From a virus, in IMG/VR virus record IMGVR_UViG_3300031993_000003: a stretch of 64,000 nucleotides of DNA. One strand, given 5' to 3'. Positions 3,001 through 36,554 of this stretch are shown here, piece after piece. The notes beneath the pieces were generated by a model. It saw only the letters and a program-made list of their open reading frames with translations, was not told the origin of the DNA and did not search any database. The translations under genes and the position numbers were made by a program. Position 1 is the first letter of the stretch. Each line of letters starts with the position of its first letter.

Positions 3001-4755
3001 GGAATGCTCGCGGAGGACTACAGGAACGCCAGGGCCCGTACCGGAGAGCTGCAGCTCGGACAGGACGACAGCTTCACCGCCGAGCCTTCCCCGGTTACAC
3101 GTGACTGGGCCGGGATGTTCTCCGGGTCCACCTACGCTATTTCCGGGAGCGACGAGGACGAGGCCGCAAGGTCAATCCGCCTCAGGAACCTCGCGCCGGT
3201 AGTCTCCGGCACTGCTGCCAAGGACGACCTTACCCCGGTATCCCCGCTGCTCGACATGCATCCCTACGTGTGGGACGACGGAACCACGAGGACAGTATCA
3301 GAGTTCCATGCCGGCAACCCGTACGGATACGGGGAGTACGCCAGTACGGACGCCGTGCAGGAGGCCCCGTGCGACTTCGTCAACGATACGTACGGCAAGG
3401 CATATGTCGGCAACAGCTTCGCCATGGCCTGCCTCGCCAGGCACCCGTCATGGCTCGATGACGCAGACTCGAGGGACGACCTGCTCAGGGCCGTGGAGAT
3501 TGCCGCGGTAGACCTCGGGCAGGAAGTGCTTTCCGCATACATGGAAGGTACCTCTCCTTCCTGGATGCAGCCGTTCAACGCCTTCGGCTCCCTGGTCTCT
3601 CCCGACAACATCCCGGTGCCTGCCGCGGGGGCTACCTCCTGCGACAGCGACGACGATGCAGCCACCTGGTACGGCGTGGACGCTTACAACTACTATTCGA
3701 TACTGAAGGGGGACACCGGGAGCAACTGGGGGCTCATCGCCACCGAGATGGGTGACACCGAGCCCGGTCTTTCCGAGATTTCAGCCTTCCTCGCCAACTA
3801 CGTCCCGAGCTACGGTGCAGACCTCCCGGTGCGCAACTGGGACAGCTTCAGGGTCAGGGTGAAGAGGACTGACCAGGTAACTACGGACCCCGTGTACCTC
3901 GCGAGGATGAAGTGGTACGGGAACAGCTGCGGCGACTCATTCAGGGGACGCTACGTGGCGGACGCATTCATAGGCAGCGACGGGTACGAGGACGTCAACC
4001 TCAATACCGTCAAGATGACCGAGGTGGCCCGCAACTCGGGAGCAACCCCGTATGCACTGGGAGGTTCCTTCGACCCGACCAGGGGTGACGCGGTGGAACC
4101 GTTCAGCACGGAGTCCGACAAGGGCTCGGTGGCCTACATCAGGATGTTCATGAAGTTCACCTTCTCGGCCGATGCCGGTAGGTGGTACTGCACGGACTAC
4201 CGGCAGGCCCCGGTGTCGTACCTGTCCCCCCTATACGGTGCTCAGTCGCTCGAGGAGGAGATAGACGGCAAGCGCATATGGACCGAACCGGCATGCCCCG
4301 TGTTCGGGTGGAAGGAGGCCACCAGGCACACGTACGGCGAGTACATGCCGATGGACATCAACCCCGTCCTCGTTGAAGAGGTGATGACGGAAAGCAACGG
4401 CATGACCCGTCTGATGCAGCCGGCAAATGCCGTCGACTACGGCGGGCTCGGCCTTTCCGCCCCGTACAACAAGTCGGGTAACACCTGGTTGAGCCCGGCG
4501 GACCGGCAGTGTGCCAACTTCTGGAGCGTCCGGGAGAACCTACGGCCTGCCACCGGGGTGCTCACCGGGACATATGTTCCCAGCTACAGTCAGTCGGGCA
4601 GCACGAAAACCTACGGTGAGAGCGGGGGCATAATGTCCGACGCCGTCCTGTGGGGTCAGTACGACTACCCGGCCAAGGGAGCGCCCGAGTACCACTTGCC
4701 GGATACGGAGGTACCGGAAGTTGACCATACGCAGGATGATTTACCGGCGACATAG
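1..4755 (+). CDS. Very large hypothetical protein (>1576 aa), 5'-partial; the frame is open from base 1. It contains a CxxC…CxxC cluster (…CATCGGTGEVSGEPCPDCCGTGY…); it may be a virion or structural protein.
   Basis: A single uninterrupted 4.7-kb ORF with no in-frame stop back to the window start; coding-like GC3; the antisense ORFs inside it are shorter and low-complexity. Confidence 0.7.
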   Translation, partial: KAATIRDFVTGVPLKPEEMLPDEHGIHPVSPLGFLNKDGEALGVHDSTECFMPYKVDGLTPEQAYLESYVVEGKYSVFTGDAVAFPVLSMARDGNYLVVTVEETVPDNENQEFYFRNVTSDDYSSTGIPMDRGSAIGSFSIAHSASGSVIRISFSGSFSGIVGAGKLLLCVKMTQNSMTQNTKKYLCVSGNEDPQKNGIFIPGTDVEDEFRKLFNYGELIPVEMECSFDLMIAYDSGAYNYLNVMHTDGTVEPIYNSCAGSYEFRYDGAYDGRQAGDDFNHVKMVCTGLHFDHVAVSGMNPLFSTRCNHHGEWGPYLSSLENSGANKKMCVVRGPGELIELYSHDIPPKHYPLVQSAACDSTHSVPANLFPSEVEENALFYQMSDAFSYENPSDGKLYNDFYLYIYNIKYTENKCYASNGYSDREVSDWVREKLGPVIGHGKHPYSAEGRLDGAGAFTRWFASCADVDISGGAGNRQVNIPGFGLGAGYTGKCNTASYDGSIPEEGLEPGGRWLTFGYGTKHDAEQVEVGKTALPLDWPFTDVVTGVDESTENNITLSRDGVEADGTLYGRLAKYDECATCGGTGEVSGEPCPDCCGTGYAKTGTLMNRVHVCLYNDFTPTDNKNGHVDGTTVLKKTFINLAAPIDTDDGDEFEVTVSLPNVNLPDAFPVPAEPTRPADGATAEEISAYETAYAAYETACRKNQSGYYSFVSQPRVYVISGAWKFSDSKVEVDNPVTDSSVEETATVTSFDIKDAFEGIPDGTRIRATIVSSGYPSEETTFTGELSDSTVTLDCGQEVTFRRGISYTICGAAYVEENNETLPDGSTPIGLNNARRSGEGGLGPDYGNGEGIQVYNRMYGVDDEGREQVITQSDKRQVVATVYPTVTNTFAWELSGRKTLNHLDSLMTMAAEDGASSIMSRIAWMNRQILAGHQAFVDAAGPDFALTPEEYPIDMSRVTAPDSSEGYSYIASVLQVAPAVAGDDGTVNAESNPVRQALRAVGMLAEDYRNARARTGELQLGQDDSFTAEPSPVTRDWAGMFSGSTYAISGSDEDEAARSIRLRNLAPVVSGTAAKDDLTPVSPLLDMHPYVWDDGTTRTVSEFHAGNPYGYGEYASTDAVQEAPCDFVNDTYGKAYVGNSFAMACLARHPSWLDDADSRDDLLRAVEIAAVDLGQEVLSAYMEGTSPSWMQPFNAFGSLVSPDNIPVPAAGATSCDSDDDAATWYGVDAYNYYSILKGDTGSNWGLIATEMGDTEPGLSEISAFLANYVPSYGADLPVRNWDSFRVRVKRTDQVTTDPVYLARMKWYGNSCGDSFRGRYVADAFIGSDGYEDVNLNTVKMTEVARNSGATPYALGGSFDPTRGDAVEPFSTESDKGSVAYIRMFMKFTFSADAGRWYCTDYRQAPVSYLSPLYGAQSLEEEIDGKRIWTEPACPVFGWKEATRHTYGEYMPMDINPVLVEEVMTESNGMTRLMQPANAVDYGGLGLSAPYNKSGNTWLSPADRQCANFWSVRENLRPATGVLTGTYVPSYSQSGSTKTYGESGGIMSDAVLWGQYDYPAKGAPEYHLPDTEVPEVDHTQDDLPAT

Positions 4756-19174: not shown

Positions 19175-21166
19175 ACCGTTGGCTGAAATCTACTCAAACT
19201 TACCAGCAGTAAGAATTGTGTGATTTCCCATGGCCTGCTTGAACAGGCCACTGCAACGGCATTTTTCCAGGCACCTCCTTACCTTCCACATGGGCAGGCT
19301 CTTTGGCTGGAAGTACCTGTATCCGCCATCCCCTGCCAGTTCAAGCAGGTTCCCCCTTAACACGGTCGAGGTAACGCGGAATTTTATGTTTACCGAACTG
19401 TTGCGGTCTGCATTGTCCTGATGGTGGCATTCCACACAGTCGAAAGTTTCCTGGTCAGGGCGGTTACGGTCGTCTATCGCGCCGCATACCGGGCACATCT
19501 TGGAAGTATATTCCGGGTGTATCAGCGAAAGCGATTCGCCGTACTTCGGGGCGATGTGCTCGACCTCGTCCTTCAGAGATGAAAGTCCTATCCGGAGATG
19601 CAGACGGCCCAGGTTCATACCGTTCCTATCCGTCGAATCCAGCCGCCTTCCCTGGAACCCGGTCAGGTTCTCCATCACTATGTGACGGTAACCCCGCGAG
19701 TACAGGTCCTTGCACATGGCCGCTATGCGTCTTTTGTTTGACTCGTTCAGCTTCAAGGTAATGGCTTCAATGCGTTTCTTGTCCTTGTGAGAAATCTTGA
19801 ACGCATCATGTTCTTCGTCCTTAGCAAACCGGGCATTGTAGTTCTTCTGCTTCTGGTCTATTTTTAGCAGTTCGGTCTCCAGTTCCGCAACGAGTTCCTC
19901 GTCGTGTGGGATGAACTCCCCGGTGCTCAAAGCGAACATGTTGTGCTTGGAATTGACGTCTATGCCGACGGTATTTTCTTCTGTAATTTCATCGGTATTC
20001 TTGTAACGGTAACCGTCCCTTGCGAGGACTATATGGATGTCCTTTCCTCGGACAACCATCGTATAGGATGTATCTTCCCCGTTGCAGTAGCGGTTCAACG
20101 AGCGATGGTAGGCCTTGTTGTATTTGAATGGCATACACAAGGTATTCTTGCTATCACCACGGTATCCTTGGTCGAACCAATCCCATGAAAATTCGATGAA
20201 ATAGTCGAACTTTCCGGTTTCGTTACGCCTAGCATCTACGATAGGACGCTTGATACGGCTACGACCGGAAAATGTGAGCGATTCGAAGGTAATCTTGCCA
20301 CGCTTCTCGTATTCGGAGAATACAGATGTCCTTCTTGACAGCGCCAACCGCATGAGGCGGGCGAAGCCGAACTTGCGTATCTTGGCCAGTATCGTTCTAT
20401 AGAACTTCTGCTTGGATTCTACTGCGGTAGGAATAGCAGATTCAAGCCAATAAACGGTTTCTTCCTTGCCGTACCGAGCAAGCCAAGTAAGTACCTTCGT
20501 TAGTTCAGTCTTCTTGGTATGGCACTCTATGGACTTCAAGTCACCTTTCTTGTGTCCCTTGACATTTATCTTGTAGAACGAGGGAACAAGTTCCTCTACC
20601 TTGACGAACTCAATCTTCTTGCGGATTGCATCAAAGCGAAGCTGGTACGCTCGCCACACATCTTCAATAGCCTTCTTCAAGTAGTGGCTAGATAGGCGTG
20701 TATTGAATGTCGGGTTGAATAAATTGAACGCCTCGAACTTAGACATATCCTGGAAGCCGAGCATATCCGAGAAGAACACTTCCGATATGTCGTTCCTTAC
20801 TGCACGGATTTCCTCTGCTCGATGAATAATTTCGGCTCGCTTGGTGTCGGACAACAGGATAGGATAGAACGCGGCGGAGAACTGCGACTTGTACCTATCC
20901 TTCAATGTCCAACAATGATTGCTCATACAATACAGAAATGGCTCGTTAGGAACTTATTGTGAGATTCAATTCCAAACGAGCCATCATAAAGGTCTCTTAC
21001 GGAGCTTAATGAAGAATCTCACTAATTCATTAAACCTATATACATTAAGTTTATAACAATATACAAAATTTTATGCCGAATTTCAACTTAAAAATACACT
21101 AAATGCATGCAAATTTAGTTAGATTTAAGTAAGATTAGGCAGATTTTAAGTTAGCTGTGGGTAACC
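19175..21166 (-). mobile_element. TnpB-only (IS200/IS605-family, IS1341-like) insertion element of ~2 kb inserted in the T-loop of tRNA-Gly(UCC).
   Basis: tRNA 5' portion at 19117-19174 and the matching 3' portion (CCGGT-CCGCCGC) at 21167-21178; TnpB ORF between them; a TTAC tetranucleotide at the element end next to the 3' tRNA piece (minus strand). Confidence 0.5.
19190..20926 (-). CDS. tnpB: TnpB-like RuvC nuclease (578 aa) with a C-terminal zinc finger.
   Basis: RuvC-I …VGIDVNSKHN…, RuvC-II …HIVMENLTGF…, CPVCG…CVECHH zinc finger plus RuvC-III DNADRNSSVNI. Confidence 0.65.
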   Translation of the reverse strand: MSNHCWTLKDRYKSQFSAAFYPILLSDTKRAEIIHRAEEIRAVRNDISEVFFSDMLGFQDMSKFEAFNLFNPTFNTRLSSHYLKKAIEDVWRAYQLRFDAIRKKIEFVKVEELVPSFYKINVKGHKKGDLKSIECHTKKTELTKVLTWLARYGKEETVYWLESAIPTAVESKQKFYRTILAKIRKFGFARLMRLALSRRTSVFSEYEKRGKITFESLTFSGRSRIKRPIVDARRNETGKFDYFIEFSWDWFDQGYRGDSKNTLCMPFKYNKAYHRSLNRYCNGEDTSYTMVVRGKDIHIVLARDGYRYKNTDEITEENTVGIDVNSKHNMFALSTGEFIPHDEELVAELETELLKIDQKQKNYNARFAKDEEHDAFKISHKDKKRIEAITLKLNESNKRRIAAMCKDLYSRGYRHIVMENLTGFQGRRLDSTDRNGMNLGRLHLRIGLSSLKDEVEHIAPKYGESLSLIHPEYTSKMCPVCGAIDDRNRPDQETFDCVECHHQDNADRNSSVNIKFRVTSTVLRGNLLELAGDGGYRYFQPKSLPMWKVRRCLEKCRCSGLFKQAMGNHTILTAGKFE

Positions 21167-21452: not shown

Positions 21453-21528
21453 GGGCCTGTGGCAGAATGGAATTGCCCCTCCCCTGCAAGGAGTGTGTTT
21501 TTGTGGGTTCGAATCCCACCAGTGTCCA
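21453..21528 (+). tRNA. tRNA-Ala(UGC)-like, with G3:U wobble, an 8-nt 3' acceptor strand (bulged U), C33 and an unusually long T-rich variable loop.
   Basis: GGGCCTG-TG-GCAG…TTGC; anticodon stem CCTCC/GGAGT with loop CCTGCAA; T-arm GTGGG-TTCGAAT-CCCAC; 3' CAGTGTCC-A. Confidence 0.45.
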
Positions 21529-21587
21529 CTAACGGTAGCTCCCGGAGAGCTGCCGGCAGATTGACAGTCCGGAATGAATTTCTTTTT

Positions 21588-21660
21588 GGGCCATTAGCTC
21601 AATGGTAGAGCGCCTGTCCGGCAGACAGGAGGTTATCGGTTCGAGCCCGATATGTGTCCA
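21588..21660 (+). tRNA. tRNA-Ala(GGC), with G3:U, a bulged U in the 3' acceptor strand and C33.
   Basis: GGGCCAT-TA-GCTC-AATGGTA-GAGC-G-CCTGT-CCGGCAG-ACAGG-AGGTT-ATCGG-TTCGAGC-CCGAT-ATGTGTCC-A. Confidence 0.55.
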
Positions 21661-21670
21661 GTATATCTTT

Positions 21671-21742
21671 GGGTCATTAGTTCAATGGTAGAACTCCCGG
21701 TCCGCATCCGGGGGATACCGGTTCGACTCCGGTATGTATCCA
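21671..21742 (+). tRNA. tRNA-Ala(CGC), with G3:U, a bulged U in the 3' acceptor strand and C33.
   Basis: GGGTCAT-TA-GTTC-AATGGTA-GAAC-T-CCCGG-TCCGCAT-CCGGG-GGAT-ACCGG-TTCGACT-CCGGT-ATGTATCC-A. Confidence 0.55.
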
Positions 21743-21746
21743 CTAA

Positions 21747-21823
21747 GGTCACTTAGCTCAGCAGGATTTCAGAGCGCCGTGCTACGAACGCGGAGGCCGG
21801 GAGTTCGAACCTCTCAGTGACTA
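21747..21823 (+). tRNA. tRNA-Arg(ACG).
   Basis: GGTCACT…; anticodon stem CCGTG/CGCGG with loop CTACGAA; T-arm GGGAG-TTCGAAC-CTCTC; 3' AGTGACT-A. Confidence 0.65.
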
Positions 21824-21838
21824 CTAACAAACTAATTC

Positions 21839-21911
21839 GGTCCCTTCGGCCAGTGGTTGAAGCCATCGCACTTTCTATGCGAAGACCCCGGTTCGAATCC
21901 GGGAGGGACTA
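21839..21911 (+). tRNA. tRNA-Glu(UUC).
   Basis: GGTCCCT…; stem TCGCA/TGCGA with loop CTTTCTA; T-arm CCCGG-TTCGAAT-CCGGG; 3' AGGGACT-A. Confidence 0.6.
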
Positions 21912-21915
21912 CTAC

Positions 21916-21989
21916 GTTCGTCTAGCTCAATTGGTTAGAGCTTCTGTCTGATATGCAGAGGGTTGCACGTTCAAGTCGTGCGGCGAACA
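21916..21989 (+). tRNA. tRNA-Ile(GAU).
   Basis: GTTCGTC-TA-GCTC…GAGC; stem TCTGT/GCAGA with loop CTGATAT; T-arm GCACG-TTCAAGT-CGTGC; 3' GGCGAAC-A. Confidence 0.65.
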
Positions 21990-21994
21990 CTAAT

Positions 21995-22067
21995 GCCGCT
22001 GTAGCTCAGTTGGTAGAGCGGAAGCCTGAAGAGCTTCGCGTCGGACGTTCGAGCCGTCCCGGCGGCA
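21995..22067 (+). tRNA. tRNA-Phe(GAA).
   Basis: GCCGCTG-TA-GCTC-AGTTGGTA-GAGC; stem GAAGC/GCTTC with loop CTGAAGA; T-arm GGACG-TTCGAGC-CGTCC; 3' CGGCGGC-A. Confidence 0.7.
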
Positions 22068-22074
22068 CTAAATT

Positions 22075-22146
22075 GGGGCCATAGTATAGTGGTCAGTACT
22101 CCGGCTTGTCACGCCGGCAACGCGGGTCCGATTCCCGCTGGTCCCG
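22075..22146 (+). tRNA. tRNA-Asp(GUC) (discriminator G).
   Basis: GGGGCCA-TA-GTAT…GTAC; stem CCGGC/GCCGG with loop TTGTCAC; T-arm GCGGG-TCCGATT-CCCGC; 3' TGGTCCC-G. Confidence 0.65.
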
Positions 22147-22156
22147 CTAGATTTTT

Positions 22157-22240
22157 GGGTGTGCGCCGACGATGGCGAGTCGGGACGGTCTGTAAAACCG
22201 TTGCCTTCGGGCTTAGCTGGTTCGAATCCAGCTACACCCA
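22157..22240 (+). tRNA. tRNA-Tyr(GUA), type II (long variable arm).
   Basis: GGGTGTG…; D-stem CCGA/TCGG; anticodon stem ACGGT/ACCGT with loop CTGTAAA; variable arm GCC-TTCG-GGC; T-arm GCTGG-TTCGAAT-CCAGC; 3' TACACCC-A. Confidence 0.6.
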
Positions 22241-22244
22241 CTAT

Positions 22245-22317
22245 TCCACCCTAGTTCAACTGGTAGAACGCCCGGCCGTTAACCGGGAGGTTCCAGGGTC
22301 GTAGCCTGGGGGTGGAG
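22245..22317 (+). tRNA. tRNA-Asn(GUU), with C33 and an atypical T-loop GTCGTAG.
   Basis: TCCACCC-TA-GTTC…GAAC; stem CCCGG/CCGGG with loop CCGTTAA; 3' GGGTGGA-G. Confidence 0.5.
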
Positions 22318-22323
22318 CTAAAT

Positions 22324-22409
22324 GGGTGTTCTCTGGTGATGGTGAATCGGGGCTGGCTGTAACCCAGCTGCCTTAAACGGCTTAGGGCGTTCGAATCGCT
22401 CAACACCCA
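22324..22409 (+). tRNA. Second type-II tRNA with anticodon GUA (Tyr), sequence-divergent from the one at 22157.
   Basis: GGGTGTT…; anticodon stem GCTGG/CCAGC with loop CTGTAAC; variable arm GCC-TTAAAC-GGC; T-arm GGGCG-TTCGAAT-CGCTC; 3' AACACCC-A (perfect acceptor pairing). Confidence 0.55.
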
Positions 22410-22549
22410 CTAAAGGATATAATTTCTGTAGTGCAATATAAATTACCAGAGGACAGGTAACTGGCATTACTTGACTTGTCGTTCTAGTCTAACTCTGGTA
22501 ATTATCAATCTATATAAACTGCATATAGAACATTGCCAGATGTTTTATC

Positions 22550-23245
22550 ATGAATTACACTAAGATTTACGCAAGTATTGTCTTGCGAGCTCAGACTGAA
22601 CGAACTGAGCGGTTAGCCTTGAAGAAACAGGGCCAGTATTTCGAGAACCATCATATAATACCTCGTTGCTTAGGCGGTATCGACAATGCATCTAATATGG
22701 CGTTATTAACTGGGCGCGAACATTTTATATGTCATTGGTTGCTAGTTAAAATTTATAGGCCGAATACTGTTGAATATTCTAAAATGATTCTAGCGCTGTG
22801 GCGAATGCGCTCTGCCGGTCAAGACCATCATGGTCGATATATCAACGCTCGTACATACGAATATCTTCGTGAAGACTATGCCCATGCTATTGGTAAAATT
22901 ACGTCTGTGACTCAGCACGGTTCAAAAAATTCTCACTATGGCGCTAAATGGTACACGAATTCGTATGATGGGACTGTTATAATATCTAAAACTGCATTAG
23001 AGTTTCCTTGGGTGCTTGGTCGAAATTTATTTAAAGGGGAATCGGTTTGTCTACAAACTTCTAGACAGCATATGCGGTTGTATGCACAAAGGTTATGGAA
23101 TCAATTCCATTCCGGTGATTATACTTCATTAAGAGACTTTAAGCGAAGAGAACATATTTCTGGTGCTTTGGTGAGCCGATTATTTTTACATCATATTCCG
23201 TTATACAGTACATTAAATGCTAATGGTCGTAAAAAAGTATTGTAA
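22550..23245 (+). CDS. HNH homing endonuclease.
   Basis: HHIIPRCLGGIDNASNMALLTGREHFICH motif; located in an AT-rich island between tRNA genes. Confidence 0.7.
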   Translation: MNYTKIYASIVLRAQTERTERLALKKQGQYFENHHIIPRCLGGIDNASNMALLTGREHFICHWLLVKIYRPNTVEYSKMILALWRMRSAGQDHHGRYINARTYEYLREDYAHAIGKITSVTQHGSKNSHYGAKWYTNSYDGTVIISKTALEFPWVLGRNLFKGESVCLQTSRQHMRLYAQRLWNQFHSGDYTSLRDFKRREHISGALVSRLFLHHIPLYSTLNANGRKKVL

Positions 23246-23757
23246 ATTTTTAAAAATATTCGAGAAAAAGGTTGCAAAAATAAGAAAAAATATATAAACT
23301 GTATGAGATGAGTGAACGAACAAGTTATGCCCTTGCACGCAGAACCATCAAAGCATAACCGACCATATAACTAACATTCAGAGCCTTCGGCTACGACCTT
23401 AATTGGGGAAGTTGAAGGACAAGGTATGGAAGGGCCGAGATGCGGAGCCGCAAGTCTTCAGAAGCATGACCGCTGTAACTGCCGTCAAGACATAGAGATG
23501 CAAATGCAGTCCCCAAAACTCACGTGGAGGGGATAGAGGCCGTTGTAGTTCGGCCATCACGTACTTCGTTGCGTGACTAATCGCTTTCATGATTTTTCAT
23601 TGAAAGCGGAAACTATTACCAAATAAAGCACTAATTGATAAATTTGAGTAATATAACTTTCCTAGGGGCTATAATCTGGTGACAACACCTCCCCAGAAGG
23701 GGAGGGCTTATAAGTAGAACATTTTTCTTATGCATGTTTGACACGAAGCAAGATTTT

Positions 23758-23770
23758 TTGCTATATTTGT
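23758..23770 (+). promoter_or_regulatory. TTTGCTATATTTG promoter 13-mer upstream of the second tRNA cluster.
   Basis: Exact motif. Confidence 0.55.
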
Positions 23771-23833
23771 CTTCGAAAAGGGAAATCCCCCGAGATTTCC
23801 GAGCAGATTTACATTTCGGATGCAATTATTCAA

Positions 23834-23907
23834 CGTGACCTACGCCAAATGGAGAGCGGCAGGTAGAGAGTGCCTGTGGTATGCCGGTTCAACTCCGGCT
23901 GTCACGT
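23834..23907 (+). tRNA. tRNA-like gene with a good acceptor stem (6 bp) and T-arm (GCCGG-TTCAACT-CCGGC) but a non-canonical anticodon arm (9-nt loop TAGAGAGTG, or a 7-nt loop lacking U33); identity unassigned.
   Basis: CGTGACC-TA…; 3' TGTCACG; standard 74-nt length; the anticodon region does not fold canonically. Confidence 0.3.
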
Positions 23908-24017
23908 TTATTAAACCCTTGATACCGGTGTCGGCCGGCGGCTTATTTCCATGGCCGCGCCTCCTAAACGGTTGTTGTGTTCTCTAGGCTGGCACCGGTA
24001 TAGGGGTGGAGTTTTAT

Positions 24018-24091
24018 CGCGGGTTGGAGCAGTTGGTAGCTCGCCAGGCCCATAACCTGGAGGCCGCGGCGTTCGAGTCCCGCACCCGCTA
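24018..24091 (+). tRNA. tRNA-Met(CAU), with a C1·U72 mismatch (initiator-like?), C33 and an imperfect T-stem.
   Basis: CGCGGGT-TG-GAGC-AGTTGGTA-GCTC-G-CCAGG-CCCATAA-CCTGG…TTCGAGT…ACCCGC. Confidence 0.45.
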
Positions 24092-24293
24092 GAAATTCCC
24101 TAAACATCTCCCGGTGACAAGCCGGGGGCACCCGGCGCCCGGACCGGGGACAACCGGGCAAACCTTTGACGTAGCCAGCGCATATCTATGGATATGCCTG
24201 GTTGCGGACGTGCTTGCGTGGTATGTACCGGCCTTGTGCTGGCGGCAACACCGTGGTATCTCCCTAGTGTGTCCGGGAGGTACCTAAAATTTA

Positions 24294-24368
24294 GCCCCGG
24301 TAGCTCAATTGGATGAGAGTACTACCCTCCGAAGGTAGTGGTTACCGGTTCAAGCCCGGTCTGGGGTA
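24294..24368 (+). tRNA. tRNA-Arg(CCG).
   Basis: GCCCCGG-TA-GCTC…; stem CTACC/GGTAG with loop CTCCGAA; T-arm ACCGG-TTCAAGC-CCGGT; 3' CTGGGGT-A. Confidence 0.6.
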
Positions 24369-24501
24369 CGAGAAATTTCCCTGGTGTAGCCACCGGGGTT
24401 TCCGGAGTAAGGACCGCGATATCTCCGGTAGAAAGCGCAAAGTTATTCGGGGGCGCTCTAAAGGCCGTGACTGGGTTAACACGGCTGACCCGTGCGGTTT
24501 C

Positions 24502-24576
24502 CGGAGTGTAGCTCAGCCTGGTAGAGCATCGGTTTTGGGAACCGAGGGTTCGCGTGTTCGAATCACGCTACTCCGA
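24502..24576 (+). tRNA. tRNA-Pro(UGG).
   Basis: CGGAGTG-TA-GCTC-AGCCTGGTA-GAGC-A-TCGGT-TTTGGGA-ACCGA…GCGTG-TTCGAAT-CACGC-TACTCCG-A. Confidence 0.65.
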
Positions 24577-24890
24577 CTAAATCCCCGACACACAAGGGGT
24601 CATTCCCCGTCGTGTGCGCCCCTACCTGGCATGCCGACATTCCGGTAGGTTCAAATTGCGAGGATAAGGGTGGACCTCGCCGGGGAGACCATTGAAATAC
24701 CCATGCACCGGGAAATCTACGGCCGTGGAATCCTCCCTTGGAGGGAGGACGGTGAAGCGGCAAGGGGCCCGTTCCTACAGTTAACATCATTGATGTCTAC
24801 GATAGGTTGCCACCGGTAGTCCCGGTAGGTGGTGGCGTAAAACGGTCGAAGGAGGCAGTTCAAGGCGTCCCCGGGCACCGAGTTTAAGTT

Positions 24891-25257
24891 GGACCGATAA
24901 CTCAATGGTTAGAGTTGCGGACTCATATATGTGCATATATGCATAAAAGCTATATGCGACTTGTGACCTCCCGGGGAAACCCTGGAGTGAAAACGGGAAG
25001 AATTCGGCGAAACCTAACCTGCCCTAGCCATAGGACCGAAAGGTTACTAGACCGGCAGTATGGTGACGCCGAGCCGAGCCCCGGGTACACCCGGGGAAGG
25101 TGTAGAGACTAGTGGAGGAGTCCAGTCTCCTTAATGACCACAACAGCATCCCGCATCTAAACCGGAAACGGCACGATGAAGACATAGTCCCGGGTAGTAT
25201 GAAAATATTACTTTATAAGGAACCCGTCGGTTGCAGGTTCGAATCCTGCTCGGTCCA
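24891..25257 (+). tRNA. tRNA-Met/Ile2(CAU) interrupted by a ~294-nt intron in the anticodon loop (exon 1 24891-24926, exon 2 25221-25257).
   Basis: 5' GGACCGA and 3' TCGGTCC are perfectly complementary 367 nt apart; D-arm ACTC/GAGT; the loop would be CTCAT|AA after splicing; T-arm GCAGG-TTCGAAT-CCTGC. Confidence 0.55.
24927..25220 (+). other. Putative group I intron (no ORF) in the tRNA anticodon loop.
   Basis: Inserted after U36 (exon 1 ends with U); the intron ends in G; GC-rich paired elements (CCCGGGG…CCCCGGG). The size and position are typical of bacterial or phage tRNA group I introns. Confidence 0.4.
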
Positions 25258-25277
25258 CTATTTAGTTTGAAAGTTTT

Positions 25278-25354
25278 GTCCTCGTCGCCTAATTGGAATG
25301 GCACCTCTCTCCTAAAGAGGTTTTTAAATGCAGGTTCGAGTCCTGCCGGGGATA
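25278..25354 (+). tRNA. tRNA-Arg(CCU), with a 9-nt T/A-rich variable loop.
   Basis: GTCCTCG…; stem CCTCT/AGAGG with loop CTCCTAA; T-arm GCAGG-TTCGAGT-CCTGC; 3' CGGGGAT-A. Confidence 0.55.
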
Positions 25355-26227
25355 CTATCCGGTGGGTGAAATTTTACTACGAAGCAAGGTAAGTAATTCT
25401 TCAATTTTGTTGGGGCGATAGCAATCCTTAAAATGTAGCTCAATAACTTCCCAGCCTTGCGATACTAAATAATCATGTCGTTCTTGATAATATGGCTTCA
25501 GTTGACCACCATAGTAATGTTGATTTCCGTTGACTTCAATGTCTAACTTTATATCAATAAAGGCTATGTCTAATGAATATGCATGTGACCACGATGCATC
25601 AGTATATTCACTTTCAAACTTGAATTTGTTGTCGGCCAATATCGTTTTCAGTGTTTCACATGGTGGAGATACAAACTTATCCGTGGATTTCCAGTTACAC
25701 TTCTCTGGATGTTCTTTAGCAAACTGGCGTTTAACTTCGGCTAGATGCGCCCTTTCCTCATTAGTCCATTTATGAGGGCCATGCGGTTTCTTTGTACATA
25801 ACTTATAATGGTCACGTTTCTTTCCGGTGTATTTCTCATTACAATATGGACATACACTATCTCGGTTCTTGGACTTGATAGTGTCTGGATGTTCCGCATG
25901 CCTATGTGCATATAGTTTGTTTTTTGACATGAAGATGCTATCGCAGAATGGACATTTCCACCCTTCTGGTCTGGCGAGTCGTTCACTGTGGAAATTGCAG
26001 TAATTATGTTTTATCTGCACTCTATTCGGATTAGAATGGCATGACTGTTCATGAAGCTTTAGTGTTCCTGGACGTTTGCATATCTTTCCACAATATTGAC
26101 AGTGGTATTCACCGGAGTCTGGCATTGTGTTGATTCGGTTTTGATTACATGGGCAGTGTTTTTCATGCACCATGCATGCTGATTTTACTGGTATTTCTTT
26201 TGAACAATATTTGCATTTCATACACAA
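25355..26227 (-). CDS. Homing-endonuclease-like protein: three C2H2-type zinc fingers plus a C-terminal DUF559/Vsr-like (PD-(D/E)xK) endonuclease domain.
   Basis: C..C…H..H repeats (CQYCGKICKRPGTLKLHEQSCH; CPFCDS…HRHAEH; CPYCNEKY…); C-terminus …LDIAFIDIKLDIEVNGNQHY…QERHDYLVSQGWEVIELHF; AT-rich island abutting the tRNA-Arg 3' end. Confidence 0.55.
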   Translation of the reverse strand: MCMKCKYCSKEIPVKSACMVHEKHCPCNQNRINTMPDSGEYHCQYCGKICKRPGTLKLHEQSCHSNPNRVQIKHNYCNFHSERLARPEGWKCPFCDSIFMSKNKLYAHRHAEHPDTIKSKNRDSVCPYCNEKYTGKKRDHYKLCTKKPHGPHKWTNEERAHLAEVKRQFAKEHPEKCNWKSTDKFVSPPCETLKTILADNKFKFESEYTDASWSHAYSLDIAFIDIKLDIEVNGNQHYYGGQLKPYYQERHDYLVSQGWEVIELHFKDCYRPNKIEELLTLLRSKISPTG

Positions 26228-26432
26228 TAGTTTATATCCGCTTTAGCTAACGGATGATGCTAACTCTGTGTTCTGTACCACTTTATTTATGCTATTAAAA
26301 GCTAGCCTCTCCGCAATAGACTCCCGGAAGTACAACGGGATGTTCGATAAGGTGGTCCTTTGCGATACATGTGGAGCAACTTACGGAATCACGGCAGGGA
26401 GTCTGAGACTCACCGTATCCGTAAGCCATCGG

Positions 26433-26457
26433 GCCGGTCCGATTCCGGCGGGAGGCA
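26433..26457 (+). other. Orphan tRNA-like 3' end (T-arm GCCGG-TCCGATT-CCGGC + acceptor 3' strand GGGAGGC-A); a complementary 5' strand GCCTCTC lies 150 nt upstream (26305), but no canonical tRNA body was found.
   Basis: A strong T-arm consensus; the intervening 26312-26432 does not fold as a D-arm or anticodon arm. Confidence 0.25.
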
Positions 26458-26601
26458 CTAAGACCGCGAACCTGCGCCGAAGCTCTTTGAGGCTGGTTTT
26501 CTCGTGGGAGGCGATATCGCCCTAGGACAGGTACAGGACTGCATGTAATGGCCGGGGTAGCTCCACGGAAAGATGCAAGCCGTAGGGGGAACAATGCTAT
26601 C

Positions 26602-26688
26602 TGGAGGGCTACGCTAATTGGTAAGCGACCACGGTGCTAACGTGGCGTCCCGGAAACGGGGCTTACAGGTTCGAACCCTGTGCCCTCC
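26602..26688 (+). tRNA. tRNA-Ser(GCU), type II.
   Basis: GGAGGGC-TA-CGCT…AGCG; stem CCACG/CGTGG with loop GTGCTAA; variable arm CCCG-GAAA-CGGG; T-arm ACAGG-TTCGAAC-CCTGT; 3' GCCCTCC (perfect). Confidence 0.65.
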
Positions 26689-26719
26689 TCTATATAAACC
26701 ACATATTCGGAGAAACATT

Positions 26720-27013
26720 ATGGACTTGTCGTCGTTCGCAATATGGAAGTTTAGGTACGTCGAGGGATACCTCGAGGGAATGCAGTCATATGACGTGGAG
26801 ACGACCAAGTACGTGAACCCGAAGACGTTCATGACTACCTGGATAAGGTACGACATGAAGAACGAGACGGCCAGCATCGAGGAGTTCGATAGGCCTCCCG
26901 TAGTCTGCAAGTTTGCCGAACTGGAGGCCACCCTGAAGAAGCTGGGTATGTACCGGGAGCGCCCGGTGACTGCCAGGCACATGCTGGCGGGGCCCCAGGA
27001 GAAGGAAGATTAA
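26720..27013 (+). CDS. Small hypothetical protein.
   Basis: The ORF track's start at 26618 lies inside tRNA-Ser; the first plausible ATG is at 26720 (MDLSSFAIWKF…). Confidence 0.45.
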   Translation: MDLSSFAIWKFRYVEGYLEGMQSYDVETTKYVNPKTFMTTWIRYDMKNETASIEEFDRPPVVCKFAELEATLKKLGMYRERPVTARHMLAGPQEKED

Positions 27014-27031
27014 AGCATAAGCACTGACCCG

Positions 27032-27157
27032 ATAGGTGTCTGCGCGGGTTGCGAACTGCGCAGGTGCCGACAAGGAGGTTCCTTCGGGCCCGGCGTTAAG
27101 CCGGTGCAAAAGTGCTTCCGGTGTCGCAACGCCGGAGGTCCCGGTTCGATTCCGGCG
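27032..27157 (+). other. 126-nt GC-rich tRNA-like element with a canonical 3' T-arm (CCGG-TTCGATT-CCGG) and 6-7-bp pairing between its 5' end (GCGCGGG) and 3' end (CCGCGC-A); the internal hairpins are too long for a standard tRNA.
   Basis: U8-like TT after the 5' acceptor strand; multiple CCGG-stem hairpins inside; it could be an unusual or intron-bearing tRNA, or a tRNA-like ncRNA. Confidence 0.25.
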
Positions 27158-27680
27158 GTGCCGCGCATTTTTTATTTGAGTTTGCCGCGAGGGTGGACGT
27201 CATCCCGGAGCGCGGCAGGGTGCTTCCCGATTAAGCACAGCCGAGTAGGCCTACTGGCGAAAGGAAATCGGAAAAACGCTACCCCGGGTTGGGCGAAAGA
27301 CATAAGTCCGACGCAAGGTAGTTAGTTTGGCAATGCGATGCTATGTGGGAAAACTGCCCGTCATTGCCCCCTGATAGGCTTGCTACGCCGGCAAGCGAGC
27401 GCTAAATCAACGCACGGGGCGAAGTTTCTAACAGGTTGACCCACGTCCATTTCGAGGCGTTCCAACATTCGGGTTTCCGGATGGGAGAAACCACCCGTCA
27501 ATTCGGGCAAACTTCTAAAGCTGGCGTTTCTAGAGCGCATCGTAGCTCCCCGCGTTGGTAGCGGCGACACCGGGTTAAAATCCGTGAGCCGGCGTGCAGA
27601 CTGTGCGCCCCATGAACGAGCGGCATAATCGTAGGTGTATGACAGGTTTCCGGTCCTGGGGAGATTTAAAACCGGTTTAT

Positions 27681-27753
27681 GGCCACGTCGAATAACGGTT
27701 CAGTTCGCCGCCCTCTCAAGGCGGAAATTCGGGTTCGAGTCCCGGCGCGGCTA
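27681..27753 (+). tRNA. tRNA-Glu(CUC).
   Basis: GGCCACG-TC-GAAT…GTTC; stem CCGCC/GGCGG with loop CTCTCAA; T-arm TCGGG-TTCGAGT-CCCGG; 3' CGCGGCT-A (one A·C mismatch). Confidence 0.5.
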
Positions 27754-27757
27754 CTAA

Positions 27758-28261
27758 ATGTCAAAGCTGATTCTCATGATAGGAATCCCCGGTTGCGGCA
27801 AGTCGACCTGGGCGACCCGGTATGCACAGGAGCATCCCGGGTGTTTCGTCGTGTCCAGCGACGGAATCAGGCGGGAACTGTACGGTACGGAGGAATTCGA
27901 CCCTGACCCGGCGGTGAACATGAGAGTGTTCGCCATGGTTCGCGCCAGGGTTTCTTCCGGTATCATCAAGGGAGATGTCATAGTGGACGCGACGAACGTC
28001 CATGTGCGCGACTGGAGGCAGTACATAGAACTGTGCCCGGGAGGTACGGACTGCAGAGCCGTGCTGCTCGACGTGGGACCGGACGAGGCGATGCGCCGCC
28101 AGGAGGGACGCGAGAGAAAGGTGCCGAGGGAGGTGCTGGAGAGGATGTGGGAGACCATCGGGAGCAACCGGGGGAGAATCCCGGAGTTCTTCGGGAGATG
28201 GCTCGTAATCGGCGAAGATGGAATAGTTTCGGAGATGACACGAGAAGAGGGACGACAATGA
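27758..28261 (+). CDS. pnk: Polynucleotide 5'-kinase (T4 Pnk kinase-domain-like, P-loop).
   Basis: MSKLILMIGIPGCGKSTWA…HPGCFVVSSDGIRRE versus T4 Pnk MKKIILTIGCPGSGKSTWA…NPGFYNINRDDYRQ; 167 aa, kinase domain only. Confidence 0.7.
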   Translation: MSKLILMIGIPGCGKSTWATRYAQEHPGCFVVSSDGIRRELYGTEEFDPDPAVNMRVFAMVRARVSSGIIKGDVIVDATNVHVRDWRQYIELCPGGTDCRAVLLDVGPDEAMRRQEGRERKVPREVLERMWETIGSNRGRIPEFFGRWLVIGEDGIVSEMTREEGRQ

Positions 28262-28425
28262 AAGTTAGAGAATGGTTAGCCAGCTTGACTAAAGAACAGC
28301 TTGACAGCTATGCGCTGCTCGGGTTCGGGTTCTGGCCGCGGCTTCTCATGAAGATGACTGAAGAGGATAGCTTCAGGATAGGCTGTAAGAGCCGATACGA
28401 CTTTGCGAAGAATATGACGAGATGA
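28259..28425 (+). CDS. Small hypothetical protein.
   Basis: ATGA overlap with pnk. Confidence 0.35.
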
Positions 28426-28444
28426 AAAGAGAAGAGGTACAACA

Positions 28445-28639
28445 ATGAGCGCATGGAAGAAAACTGCCGAGGAGCTTCCCGAGAATGACGAGCCGGTGGC
28501 AATCCGCCCAAGTTTCCATGGGCGACAGTTCGCCGTATGGAACCGGAAGTGCGACTGTTGGGACGACGAGACTGGCGACGACTACATGTGCGACCGTGAC
28601 GCGGTCGAGGAATGGTACCCTATTCCATGGAACGAATAA
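28445..28639 (+). CDS. Small hypothetical protein.
   Basis: 64-aa ORF. Confidence 0.4.
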   Translation: MSAWKKTAEELPENDEPVAIRPSFHGRQFAVWNRKCDCWDDETGDDYMCDRDAVEEWYPIPWNE

Positions 28640-28649
28640 CAGGAGCGAA

Positions 28650-28833
28650 CATGAAGAAGCACGAGGATATCCCGGAAGAGACCGAGGAACAGAAGAGGGA
28701 GCGCTGGGAGAAGTCCCAGAAGAAGGCGAGGTCGTTCGCGAGGCAGTGCGGCGTGGACCTGAAGAAGATTACCAGGGAGCGCCGGAAGATTGCCATGGAG
28801 CATGCCAGGGGTTCCGAGAAGTACGACTACTGA
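28650..28833 (+). CDS. Small basic hypothetical protein.
   Basis: ORF starting MKKHEDIPEE…. Confidence 0.4.
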
Positions 28834-28842
28834 TTTTAAGGA

Positions 28843-28932
28843 GGTGTGGCCGAGAGGTTGATGGCTGCCGATTTGAAATCGGCCGAGGGCTGATGAGGTC
28901 CTCCGTGGGTTCGAATCCTACCACCTCTTCTA
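28843..28932 (+). tRNA. tRNA-Ser(UGA), type II.
   Basis: GGAGGTG-TG-GCC…GGC; stem GCCGA/TCGGC with loop TTTGAAA; variable arm GAGG…CCTC; T-arm GTGGG-TTCGAAT-CCTAC; 3' CACCTCT. Confidence 0.6.
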
Positions 28933-35273: not shown

Positions 35274-36554
35274 ATGAGAATCGAAGAAGCGAAAGATATC
35301 GAGAGTGTTGAAAGAGGTCTCCGGCTTGTGCGGGAGATTGAGTCGTGCGGATATACCGCATGCATCGCGGGCGGCTGCGTACGCGACCTTGTAAGGTGGA
35401 AGATTAGCCTTTCGCACGACCCGGACATACATGACGTGGATATAGCGACCAACATGCCCATGGAAAGGCTGAAGGAGCACTTCAGGTGCGCCAGCAACAA
35501 CGGGGAGGCCCACGGTACCATCCTGGTGCTGTTCGAGGATGTTCCGTACGAGGTGACCCAGTACAGGGCCGACGGGAAGTACACCGACGGGCGGCATCCC
35601 GATTCGGTGAAGTGGGCCGATACGTTCGAGGAAGATACCCGGAGAAGGGACTTCACCATGAACTCGATGGGACTCGATTCCGATTACAATGTGCTGGACT
35701 ACCACGGCGGGGAAGATTCCATACGTTTTGGCGAGATTGCAACCGTAGGCGACCCCATAGAGAGGTTCAACGAGGATGCCCTGAGGATTGTGCGTGCCTA
35801 CCGGTTCGCCTCCCGGTTCGGAATGTCGATTTCCCCGGTGACTTCCGCGGCCTGCATGGCGCTTGCCGGGAGGGTCTCCCACCTTACCCCGGAGAGACTG
35901 CATGACGAGTTCTACAAGACTGCGTCGTACGGGGTGAAGGCGTTCGCCGAGTTCATCAGCTACCTCGCCGAGGGCGTCGGTCCGTACATATGCGGCGGCA
36001 TAGACTGGAAGGAACTGTCCACCCAGATGCACCGCATAAGGTCCTCCCAGTTGCTCCAGTGGGACCCCGACTATGCCCTCGCGCTGGTCTTCGACACCGA
36101 GGAGCAGATGAGGGCCTTCCGGTGCAGCCTGGACGAGATAAGGGCGATGAAGTTCATCCACTCGTACTACCCACGGTACCTTGCCGGGGAGCTCGACCTG
36201 GTGGACTTCGTGGACGGCACCAACGACCCACGGTGGGACGCGCTGAGGGCCTATGCGATATCCAGGCAGGGGTTCTTCGTGCTGCGCCCCGACGAGGAGG
36301 CGAGGTTCCGCTCGTTCAGGTACAGGTATCCTACGGCCGGGGACATAAGCAAGGAACTTGAGGAGTCCGGGGTAGCATCCGGGAAGCAGTTTGGGGAGTA
36401 CCTCAAGGAGGTCCGGAAGATGGCCTACCGGGAGATGCTGGCTAGGAAGGATATTGGTAAAGATGACCTGCATAAACTGGTTGCCGAAGCAAGGAGACAA
36501 GTCGACAGCCGATGCACGCAGTCCTCAGTATCATCTTCTGGCTCCTCGGAATAG
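35274..36554 (+). CDS. cca: tRNA nucleotidyltransferase (CCA-adding enzyme), class II.
   Basis: Head-domain motifs GGCVRD…DVD, RRDFTMN and DPIERFNEDALRIVRAYRF. Confidence 0.75.
   Translation: MRIEEAKDIESVERGLRLVREIESCGYTACIAGGCVRDLVRWKISLSHDPDIHDVDIATNMPMERLKEHFRCASNNGEAHGTILVLFEDVPYEVTQYRADGKYTDGRHPDSVKWADTFEEDTRRRDFTMNSMGLDSDYNVLDYHGGEDSIRFGEIATVGDPIERFNEDALRIVRAYRFASRFGMSISPVTSAACMALAGRVSHLTPERLHDEFYKTASYGVKAFAEFISYLAEGVGPYICGGIDWKELSTQMHRIRSSQLLQWDPDYALALVFDTEEQMRAFRCSLDEIRAMKFIHSYYPRYLAGELDLVDFVDGTNDPRWDALRAYAISRQGFFVLRPDEEARFRSFRYRYPTAGDISKELEESGVASGKQFGEYLKEVRKMAYREMLARKDIGKDDLHKLVAEARRQVDSRCTQSSVSSSGSSE

Follow-up and report, generated by a model that had tools for sequence, protein, structure and literature searches.

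Natural transfer RNAs (tRNAs) that break the acceptor stem of seven base pairs (bp) are rare outside mitochondria, and the known cases (tRNA-Sec, tRNA-His with G-1, and allo-tRNAs) have each signalled a special interaction. Here, we analyze three tandem tRNA-Ala genes at positions 21453-21742 of a 64,000-nucleotide (nt) stretch of virus record IMGVR_UViG_3300031993_000003 from IMG/VR (this whole stretch is hereafter "the window"), in which a single U bulges from the 3′ strand of the acceptor stem and position 33 of the anticodon loop is C. Among the closest described structures are the 8/4 and 9/3 tRNAs (allo-tRNAs and the 8/4 tRNA-Ser and tRNA-His of phages, PMC5389517), along with 8/4 tRNA-Sec and selC* tRNA-Cys. 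These are likewise natural departures from the 7/5 branch, lie partly in phage tRNA clusters, and in some cases combine G3:U70 with alanine charging in E. coli. However, their acceptor comprises 8 or 9 pairs, their T stem is shortened and their bulge lies in it, at 51a, whereas the bulged class described here keeps 7 + 5 pairs and a 5′ strand of 7 nt, and has its unpaired base in the acceptor 3′ strand. In mitochondrial tRNA-Ala (G2:U71 in Drosophila, G5:U68 in human; PMC6451123), the acceptor is also rearranged around the alanine identity pair, but there the G:U moves and the synthetase has co-evolved, whereas in the bulged class G3:U70 is fixed and a base is added below it.

With canonical tRNA-Ala (phage T5 UGC, E. 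coli), the bulged class shares the cloverleaf, the NGC anticodon, G1:C72, G2:C71, G3:U70, A73, and a T arm that has the usual 5 bp and a GGUUCGANNCC loop. It differs by the extra U between positions 68 and 69 and by Y4:R69 in place of the G4:C69 of E. coli, and the window genes differ further by C33 for U33. As for the genomic setting, L-arrays (PMC8421152) have the same dense, one-orientation arrays, homing endonucleases and horizontal spread, while phage tRNAs with anticodon-loop changes have been proposed, for mycobacteriophages, to resist anticodon nucleases (PMC10264068), a proposal that shares the idea of mobile tRNAs differing from host copies at nuclease-recognition sites. Neither of these two studies describes an acceptor-stem bulge or position 33, and the C33 of the window differs from the U33 of orthologues in related phages, a comparison made among phages. 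No description of an acceptor bulge or of C33 in phage tRNAs was found in a literature search that left subscription journals largely outside, and a 2020 review of non-canonical tRNAs (PMC7609411) holds nothing like the bulged class; bulged tRNA-Ala is apparently undescribed.

Three tRNA-Ala genes with an 8-nt 3′ acceptor strand

The three genes were delineated as follows, each one nucleotide longer than the corresponding ARAGORN call:

21453-21528, + strand: tRNA-Ala(UGC), Ala1; A73 at 21528, bulged U at 21523, C33 at 21484 (ARAGORN 21453-21527)
21588-21660, + strand: tRNA-Ala(GGC), Ala2; A73 at 21660, bulged U at 21655, C33 at 21619 (ARAGORN 21588-21659)
21671-21742, + strand: tRNA-Ala(CGC), Ala3; A73 at 21742, bulged U at 21737, C33 at 21702 (ARAGORN 21671-21741)

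Read directly from the sequence, the acceptor strands are GGGCCUG against CAG-U-GUCC (CAGUGUCC) in Ala1, GGGCCAU against AUG-U-GUCC (AUGUGUCC) in Ala2, and GGGUCAU against AUG-U-AUCC (AUGUAUCC) in Ala3, each 3′ strand being preceded by a regular 5-bp T arm and followed by A. In all three genes, 7 nt of 5′ strand thus face 8 nt of 3′ strand. When the U between nt 68 and 69 (U68a) is left unpaired, 7/7 pairs form, the third pair is G3:U70 and the next base is A73, so that none of the three has the uninterrupted, equal-strand 7-bp acceptor stem of the canonical 7/5 cloverleaf. Pair 4:69 is U:A in Ala3 and C:G in Ala1 and Ala2, a compensatory change inside the window. The 8-nt strand with its extra U and the G3:U pair are as the original prediction had described them. 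It had also stressed the recurrence of the bulge in three independently diverged genes; the recurrence stands, but Ala2 and Ala3 are close paralogues and the window therefore holds two independent lineages.

The three anticodons, UGC, GGC and CGC, each sit in a 7-nt loop (CCUGCAA in Ala1, CCGGCAG in Ala2, UCCGCAU in Ala3), and the variable loop of Ala1 is long (8 nt). The minimum-energy fold of Ala1 (RNAfold) is a cloverleaf with the bulged acceptor, and RNAfold keeps the bulged stem in the window's Ala genes. All three genes score above the gathering score of 29 bits against the Rfam tRNA model (RF00005; Ala1 32.8, Ala2 48.9, Ala3 46.1 bits), these scores being depressed because two acceptor-stem mismatches are forced on the alignment. 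The window contains the 3′ motif GGTTCGANNCCNNNNNGTRTCCA 3 times, where shuffles predict 0.00 occurrences.

Between Ala1 and Ala2, the 59-nt spacer (21529-21587) holds a possible 8-bp hairpin (GGUAGCUC...GAGCUGCC) as well as GCCGGCAGA, which is similar to the anticodon loop of Ala(GGC). This spacer may have a role in processing or may be what is left of a tRNA.

Covariation supports the bulged register

The forced mismatches arise from the alignment chosen by both ARAGORN and Infernal (with the Rfam model), in which no insertion is placed, G3.G/A70 and Y4.U69 are left as non-pairs, and the final C serves as discriminator. If this register were true (G3.G70 and C4.U69 mismatches, C73), the RNAs would lack alanine identity and would be uncharged decoys or regulators, or decaying pseudogenes. 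The agreement of the two programs speaks for it, as does one relative (in contig L376) that is fully paired in the tools' register, with U3:A70 and C73.

The relatives of the three genes bear on this choice. We scanned IMG/VR for a T loop followed by the 3′ motif GGTTCGANNCCNNNNNGTRTCCA, leaving the 5′ strand free, and obtained at least 119 loci; in 100 of the matches, a correctly spaced 5′ strand pairs 7/7 in the bulged register. Family members were picked for this fit and their 100% pairing is thus by construction; the way in which 4:69 covaries and the complementary 5′ strand, which was left free, do not follow from this choice. The 100 fitting viral matches and the window's three genes amount to 78 distinct sequences, nearly all tRNA-Ala, and share the motif 5′-GGGYC / G-U-R-U-C-C-A-3′, which is found in at least 100 viral contigs. 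The family comprises 19 distinct acceptor types, 10 of them with C:G and 9 with U:A at pair 4:69, i.e., position 4 covaries with the base that is paired to it only in the bulged register, and pairs 6:67 and 7:66 covary with three to five forms each. The register without a bulge, in contrast, leaves both 3:70 and 4:69 unpaired in 19/19 acceptor types, and these mismatches are never compensated.

Applied to 24 diverse members, RNAalifold returned, unprompted, a cloverleaf that includes the bulge, with compensatory changes at 15/21 pairs. These changes uphold all four arms, which indicates that members of the bulged family are not pseudogenes. In addition, an encoded CCA follows directly in 24/97 distinct bulged members, behind the A and not behind the C, so that this A is position 73 and the strand before it is 8 nt long. 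G2:C71 is invariant and the A after the 8-nt strand is present in all members, while G3:U70 is found in the three Ala genes and in 18/19 acceptor types, the exception being A3:U70 in a Phe(GAA) derivative. G4:C69 is absent, with C4:G69 or U4:A69 used throughout the bulged family; some canonical phage tRNA-Ala also have C4:G69. On these comparative grounds, we conclude that the bulged register is correct and that the tools' alignment exists but yields no canonical stem, its being the true one appearing extremely improbable. Since ARAGORN and Infernal mis-register bulged genes (C73, no G3:U70), pipelines built on identity elements may score them wrongly or drop them.

The relative that pairs in the other register lies in the 3210-3232 region of viral contig L376. 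It has anticodon UGC and is close to the bulged class, its 5′ GGUGUAU and 3′ AUGCAUC pairing 7/7. This is the sole case seen in which the tools' register has become a true stem, and it is without alanine identity elements.

Other readings of the three genes were rejected. Stretching the 5′ strand to 8 nt for an 8/4 fold leaves four non-pairs, while the consensus has 7 acceptor and 5 T-stem pairs. Taking the encoded "...UCCA" as a CCA end, or shifting the anticodon loop to restore U33, produces several mismatches in either case (read from the sequence). A transfer-messenger RNA (tmRNA, RF00023) match at 21453-21531 reaches 19.7 bits against a gathering score of 47 and covers tRNA-like ends only; the 76 nt give no room for a tag, and the weak match reflects the tRNA-Ala-like ends. 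No alignment that gives a canonical stem or U33 was thus found, the covariance-model alignment itself leaving two mismatches.

Conservation of the bulged U

We next consider whether the identity of the bulged base is constrained. When A, C or G was put in place of the bulged U, a complete scan gave 85 loci, mostly unrelated coding sequence or ordinary long-arm tRNAs, and the only fit was L392, with G; U therefore outnumbers the other bases by at least 50 to 1. The neighbors of the bulge are constrained as well, with Y4:R69 always and C5:G68 in 18/19 acceptor types.

The orthologues of the window genes illustrate both the persistence of the bulge and its rare variants. The gene order Ala-Ala-Ala-Arg(ACG)-Glu-Ile-Phe is common to the window, to the viral loci L115, L033 and L082, and to L188, a Prevotella contig; together with nucleotide identities of 76-88% to the window array, this indicates that these loci are related to the window's element. 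Orthologues of the window's Ala(UGC) keep the bulge in L115, L188, L033 and L047, and the L082 orthologue of Ala(GGC) combines this bulged stem with U33 (loop CUGGCAG). The Ala-GGC of L115, on the other hand, is a canonical orthologue. In rare variants, the extra U sits one step further 5′ (Ala-CGC of L115 and L188, AUUGAUCC, both also with C33), a G bulge occurs with G4:U69 (L033, L082), or A4 re-pairs with the U (L084, L096).

Such variants would be expected if the bulge were a functionless, tolerated accident that marks one old tRNA-Ala lineage spread with mobile arrays, its cost being small because alanyl-tRNA synthetase (AlaRS) needs just the first four pairs. The canonical Ala-GGC of L115 fits this account, and so does the acceptor module common to all isoacceptors, as duplication followed by anticodon change would give. 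However, neutral drift should have produced a mixture of the four nucleotides and frequent loss of one base, instead of the observed predominance of U. A one-base deletion would give a perfect canonical stem, and the U is still kept in members that differ across the D, anticodon and T arms; the flanking pairs have been held while the remaining molecule diverged with compensatory changes. We thus regard the neutral account as unlikely, and consider that the bulged tRNA-Ala are very probably a real class under selection.

Frequency and distribution

The bulge is largely specific to tRNA-Ala. Among 2170 tRNAs called by ARAGORN in sampled viral loci (L001-L119, L246-L364), a bulge at this place was found in 83 tRNA-Ala genes and two further tRNAs. 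One of the latter, called Cys by ARAGORN, has the anticodon loop of Ala(UGC). The other, a tRNA-Phe(GAA) in L015 (10405-10479; GGACCAG / CUG-U-GUCC-A, with A3:U70), looks like a bulged tRNA-Ala in which the anticodon was switched and the alanine identity pair lost. The remaining apparent bulges among the 2170 are misplaced 5′ ends or 4-bp T stems.

To gauge frequency, viral tRNA-Ala(UGC) were also drawn blind to the acceptor, with TTGCA...GGTTCGANNCC; this sample contained 88 canonical 7/7 stems and ~7 bulged ones, i.e., the bulged form makes up a few percent of viral tRNA-Ala(UGC). The seven cultured phages checked for the bulge (Moby, Blueeyedbeauty, phiWae14, DSS3_MAL1, CcrBL9, Phosso and T5) are all canonical and, unlike the bulged class, have an uninterrupted 7-bp stem. 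The collection of cultured phages held no close match to the window's array, to its ligase, or to six diverse bulged members.

In cellular genomes (one genome per prokaryotic species), the same scan gave at least 120 matches, mostly chance occurrences in coding sequence. Among the matches listed, 16 fit, all of them within densely packed tRNA arrays holding as many as 35 genes, and the hosts of these arrays include several cyanobacteria (usually with CCA encoded), two Haloarcula species, Gemmataceae, Lachnospiraceae and a Prevotella rumen bin. In each of the two Haloarcula genomes (L152, 674-3759; L234, 762-7762), a bulged tRNA-Ala(CGC) belongs to a dense array of 21-22 tRNA genes. The claim that the bulge is a real feature rather than a misfold is thereby upheld, the bulged register and its compensatory changes recurring in at least 100 viral loci and 16 cellular arrays, in agreement with RNAalifold. 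The search for the same bulge in related phage genomes, suggested at the time, did find it, in a region that is conserved in homologues and shows no decay.

C33 in the anticodon loop

U33, which makes the U-turn, is near-universal in cellular tRNAs. In the window, C33 is present in the five genes named in the original prediction, i.e., in the three Ala genes and in two further tRNAs:

22245-22318, + strand: tRNA-Asn, C33 at 22277 (loop CCGUUAA)
24017-24092, + strand: tRNA-Met, C33 at 24050 (loop CCCAUAA)

This amounts to 5/19 tRNAs in the window, as compared to 76/1945 distinct tRNAs (3.9%) in the sampled viral loci, where C33 is spread over many isotypes and is found in tRNAs with canonical stems; tRNAs with C33 usually have C32 too. 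Within the bulged family, 65/73 sequences readable by ARAGORN have U33, including the Ala-UGC orthologue of L115 (CUUGCAA). Given U33 in this gene and in the Ala-GGC orthologue of L082, C33 is recent in two of the three Ala genes, with their stems intact. The bulge and C33 are thus separable features: the original prediction had presented the bulged stem, the G3:U pair, C33 and the missing CCA as a shared set, and all four are indeed found in the three genes without forming a unit across their relatives. The recurrence of C33 across lineages suggests tolerance or advantage, not decay.

The GGC isoacceptor retains a Watson-Crick 32:38 pair: Ala2 can pair C32 with G38 (21618-21624), L082 has the same C32:G38, while L033 and L115 have A32:U38 instead. 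This pair, which resembles the A32-U38 tuning element reported for E. coli tRNA-Ala(GGC), argues that the loop is functionally constrained despite C33.

The tRNA array and its neighbors

The three Ala genes open an array of 19 tRNA genes called by ARAGORN, all on the + strand, that spans 21453-28930 (7.5 kb). Like mobile long tRNA arrays, this array has a single orientation, a high density and a homing-endonuclease-like open reading frame (ORF). Apart from the genes above, it contains or adjoins the following features:

19190-20926, - strand: TnpB-like ORF, 578 aa; Cas12f1-like TNB domain (E = 1.7e-13), matches to PHROG transposases
21747-28930, + strand: rest of the array, 16 ARAGORN calls with ordinary acceptor stems
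22550-23245, + strand: homing-endonuclease-like ORF within the array; PHROG 655 "homing endonuclease" (E = 2.2e-37)
24891-25258, + strand: intron-containing tRNA, anticodon CAU (ARAGORN intron mode), with exons GGACCGAUAACUCAAUGGUUAGAGUUGCGGACUCAUA and AACCCGUCGGUUGCAGGUUCGAAUCCUGCUCGGUCCA
25355-26227, - strand: endonuclease-like ORF within the array; weak zinc-finger, RAP and DUF559 (nuclease-fold) matches

The CAU tRNA, which was missed by the default tRNA scan, has a 294-nt insert after position 37; here, Rfam reports a group I intron match (24942-25211; 44.6 bits, slightly below the gathering score of 50; E = 5.4e-9). The endonuclease-like ORF at 25355-26227 abuts tRNA-Arg(CCU) and this intron-bearing tRNA, and the TnpB-like gene lies ~0.5 kb upstream of the array. 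One ARAGORN call, a tRNA-Ser(AGA) at 23833-23908 (+), has an odd anticodon loop (AGAGAGU) and no tRNA is reported there by the Rfam scan; the call is probably either spurious or based on a remnant.

Homing endonucleases are known beside phage arrays and L-arrays, and L-arrays spread horizontally (PMC8421152). Selection on the bulge could act on the DNA, the insertion shielding the gene from a homing endonuclease that cuts a conserved tRNA-Ala sequence in competing genomes. Homing-endonuclease-like genes do lie in or beside these arrays, including at 22550-23245 in the window, and T4 SegB is reported to cut inside tRNA genes (PMC8421152). Polymorphisms that confer immunity should, however, be idiosyncratic, not one invariant base across divergent genes and domains. 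Moreover, when neighbor proteins were clustered (2352 ORFs in total, 77 bulged loci being compared with 118 controls), the homing-endonuclease-like family, although the commonest, was found near 13/77 bulged loci, and near 10/118 controls. We consider this explanation very improbable.

CCA ends and 3′ trailers

None of the tRNAs of the window's array is followed by an encoded CCA. This had been called unusual, which does not hold: ~75% of the bulged family is without encoded CCA, and the window carries an enzyme gene of the corresponding kind:

35274-36554, + strand: homologue of tRNA nucleotidyltransferase (CCA-adding enzyme); Pfam PolyA_pol head domain (E = 4.3e-25), PHROG 2244 (E = 5.7e-40)

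Judging from these matches, its product would add the CCA that the array genes do not encode. In the flanks between 21528 and 28934, the trinucleotide C-U-A (mostly as CUAA or CUAU) stands right after the discriminator in 15/19 ARAGORN calls and in the intron-containing tRNA, and it is also found behind 21/97 distinct bulged tRNA-Ala elsewhere. This trailer may serve as a signal for processing or represent an incomplete CCA.

Possible function and significance

We tentatively propose, with somewhat less than even confidence, that the three genes encode functional tRNA-Ala isoacceptors, which belong to a conserved non-canonical class found in phage and mobile arrays and whose altered surfaces would escape a tRNA-directed factor. 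Nuclease evasion, like tuned recognition by AlaRS or RNase P, had been put forward as a possible purpose in the original prediction and is still a hypothesis. The array would be transcribed and the tRNAs cut out, CCA would be added, probably by the phage's own nucleotidyltransferase, and host AlaRS, reading just the first few acceptor pairs, would charge the tRNAs, which would then decode GCN codons. The sequence-specific bulged U would reshape the acceptor stem and, in this phage lineage, the change of U33 to C would reshape the anticodon loop, i.e., the two surfaces that are read by tRNA-directed nucleases and modifying toxins. The mobile copy would then stay usable while host tRNA-Ala is attacked or depleted.

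The two halves of this proposal differ in strength. Charging with alanine and participation in translation are probable: the AlaRS identity set at the top of the helix is intact (G1:C72, G2:C71, G3:U70, A73), and minimal acceptor helices, in work from the Schimmel laboratory, reportedly serve as AlaRS substrates. That the bulge exists to escape a tRNA-directed factor is less likely than not. A Burkholderia CdiA toxin is reported to be a tRNA-Ala-specific nuclease of the acceptor stem, but no nuclease with this specificity is known to occur widely. Several further observations weigh against the proposal. The full bacterial AlaRS identity set comprises A73, G2:C71, G3.U70, G4:C69 and G20 (PMC9976931), and the minor E. 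coli determinant G4:C69 is replaced by Y4:R69 in the bulged class. Bulged and canonical tRNA-Ala stand side by side in 21 loci. In the trn operon that Anabaena 7120 carries, the array that has been studied experimentally and in which 23/26 tRNAs are charged in vivo, the sole tRNA-Ala is canonical and the bulged Ala(GGC) of other Nostoc arrays is absent. Among the 2352 clustered ORFs, no family other than the homing-endonuclease-like one was enriched near bulged genes, and the only hint of a host, a weak one, is the Prevotella metagenome bin. Finally, the span over Bacteria, an archaeon and their viruses suits a universal partner (AlaRS, RNase P or elongation factor) at least as well as a defence system.

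A rival view is that the bulge tunes core machinery, i.e., AlaRS charging across hosts, the RNase P site, 3′ processing, CCA addition or elongation-factor binding. Its restriction to tRNA-Ala, for which the acceptor stem carries the entire identity (PMC9976931), would fit such a role, as would its occurrence in Bacteria, Haloarcula and viruses and the constrained neighboring pairs. In the sampled viral loci, a U at -1, which could pair with A73, is also somewhat enriched (85% of 65 bulged tRNA-Ala, against 64% of 99 canonical tRNA-Ala and 70% of 1371 other tRNAs), although the difference is modest and uncorrected for relatedness. Most phage tRNA-Ala, however, are canonical and work in the same kinds of hosts, and we judge this role rather unlikely. 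In a more far-reaching reading, which we hold to be less likely than not, the invariant U68a would be a specific recognition or anti-recognition element for a widespread factor acting on the tRNA-Ala acceptor stem, and the bulged genes a dedicated mobile-element class in phage and horizontally transferred arrays of Bacteria and Archaea. Evasion of such a factor through the bulge would be expected of a defence nuclease or modifier; alternatively, the factor could be a partner able to distinguish mobile from host tRNA-Ala.

The finding is that of a single, sequence-specific bulge two pairs below G3:U70, conserved across very different viruses and mobile arrays. If functional, it would show in a natural setting to what extent AlaRS, RNase P, the CCA-adding enzyme, EF-Tu and the ribosome put up with an irregular helix. 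It would also allow the spread of tRNA arrays to be traced, and possibly give access to a factor that targets tRNA-Ala. Because alanine identity is independent of the anticodon, bulged tRNA-Ala would, in that case, also be a candidate scaffold for orthogonal alanine-accepting suppressors.

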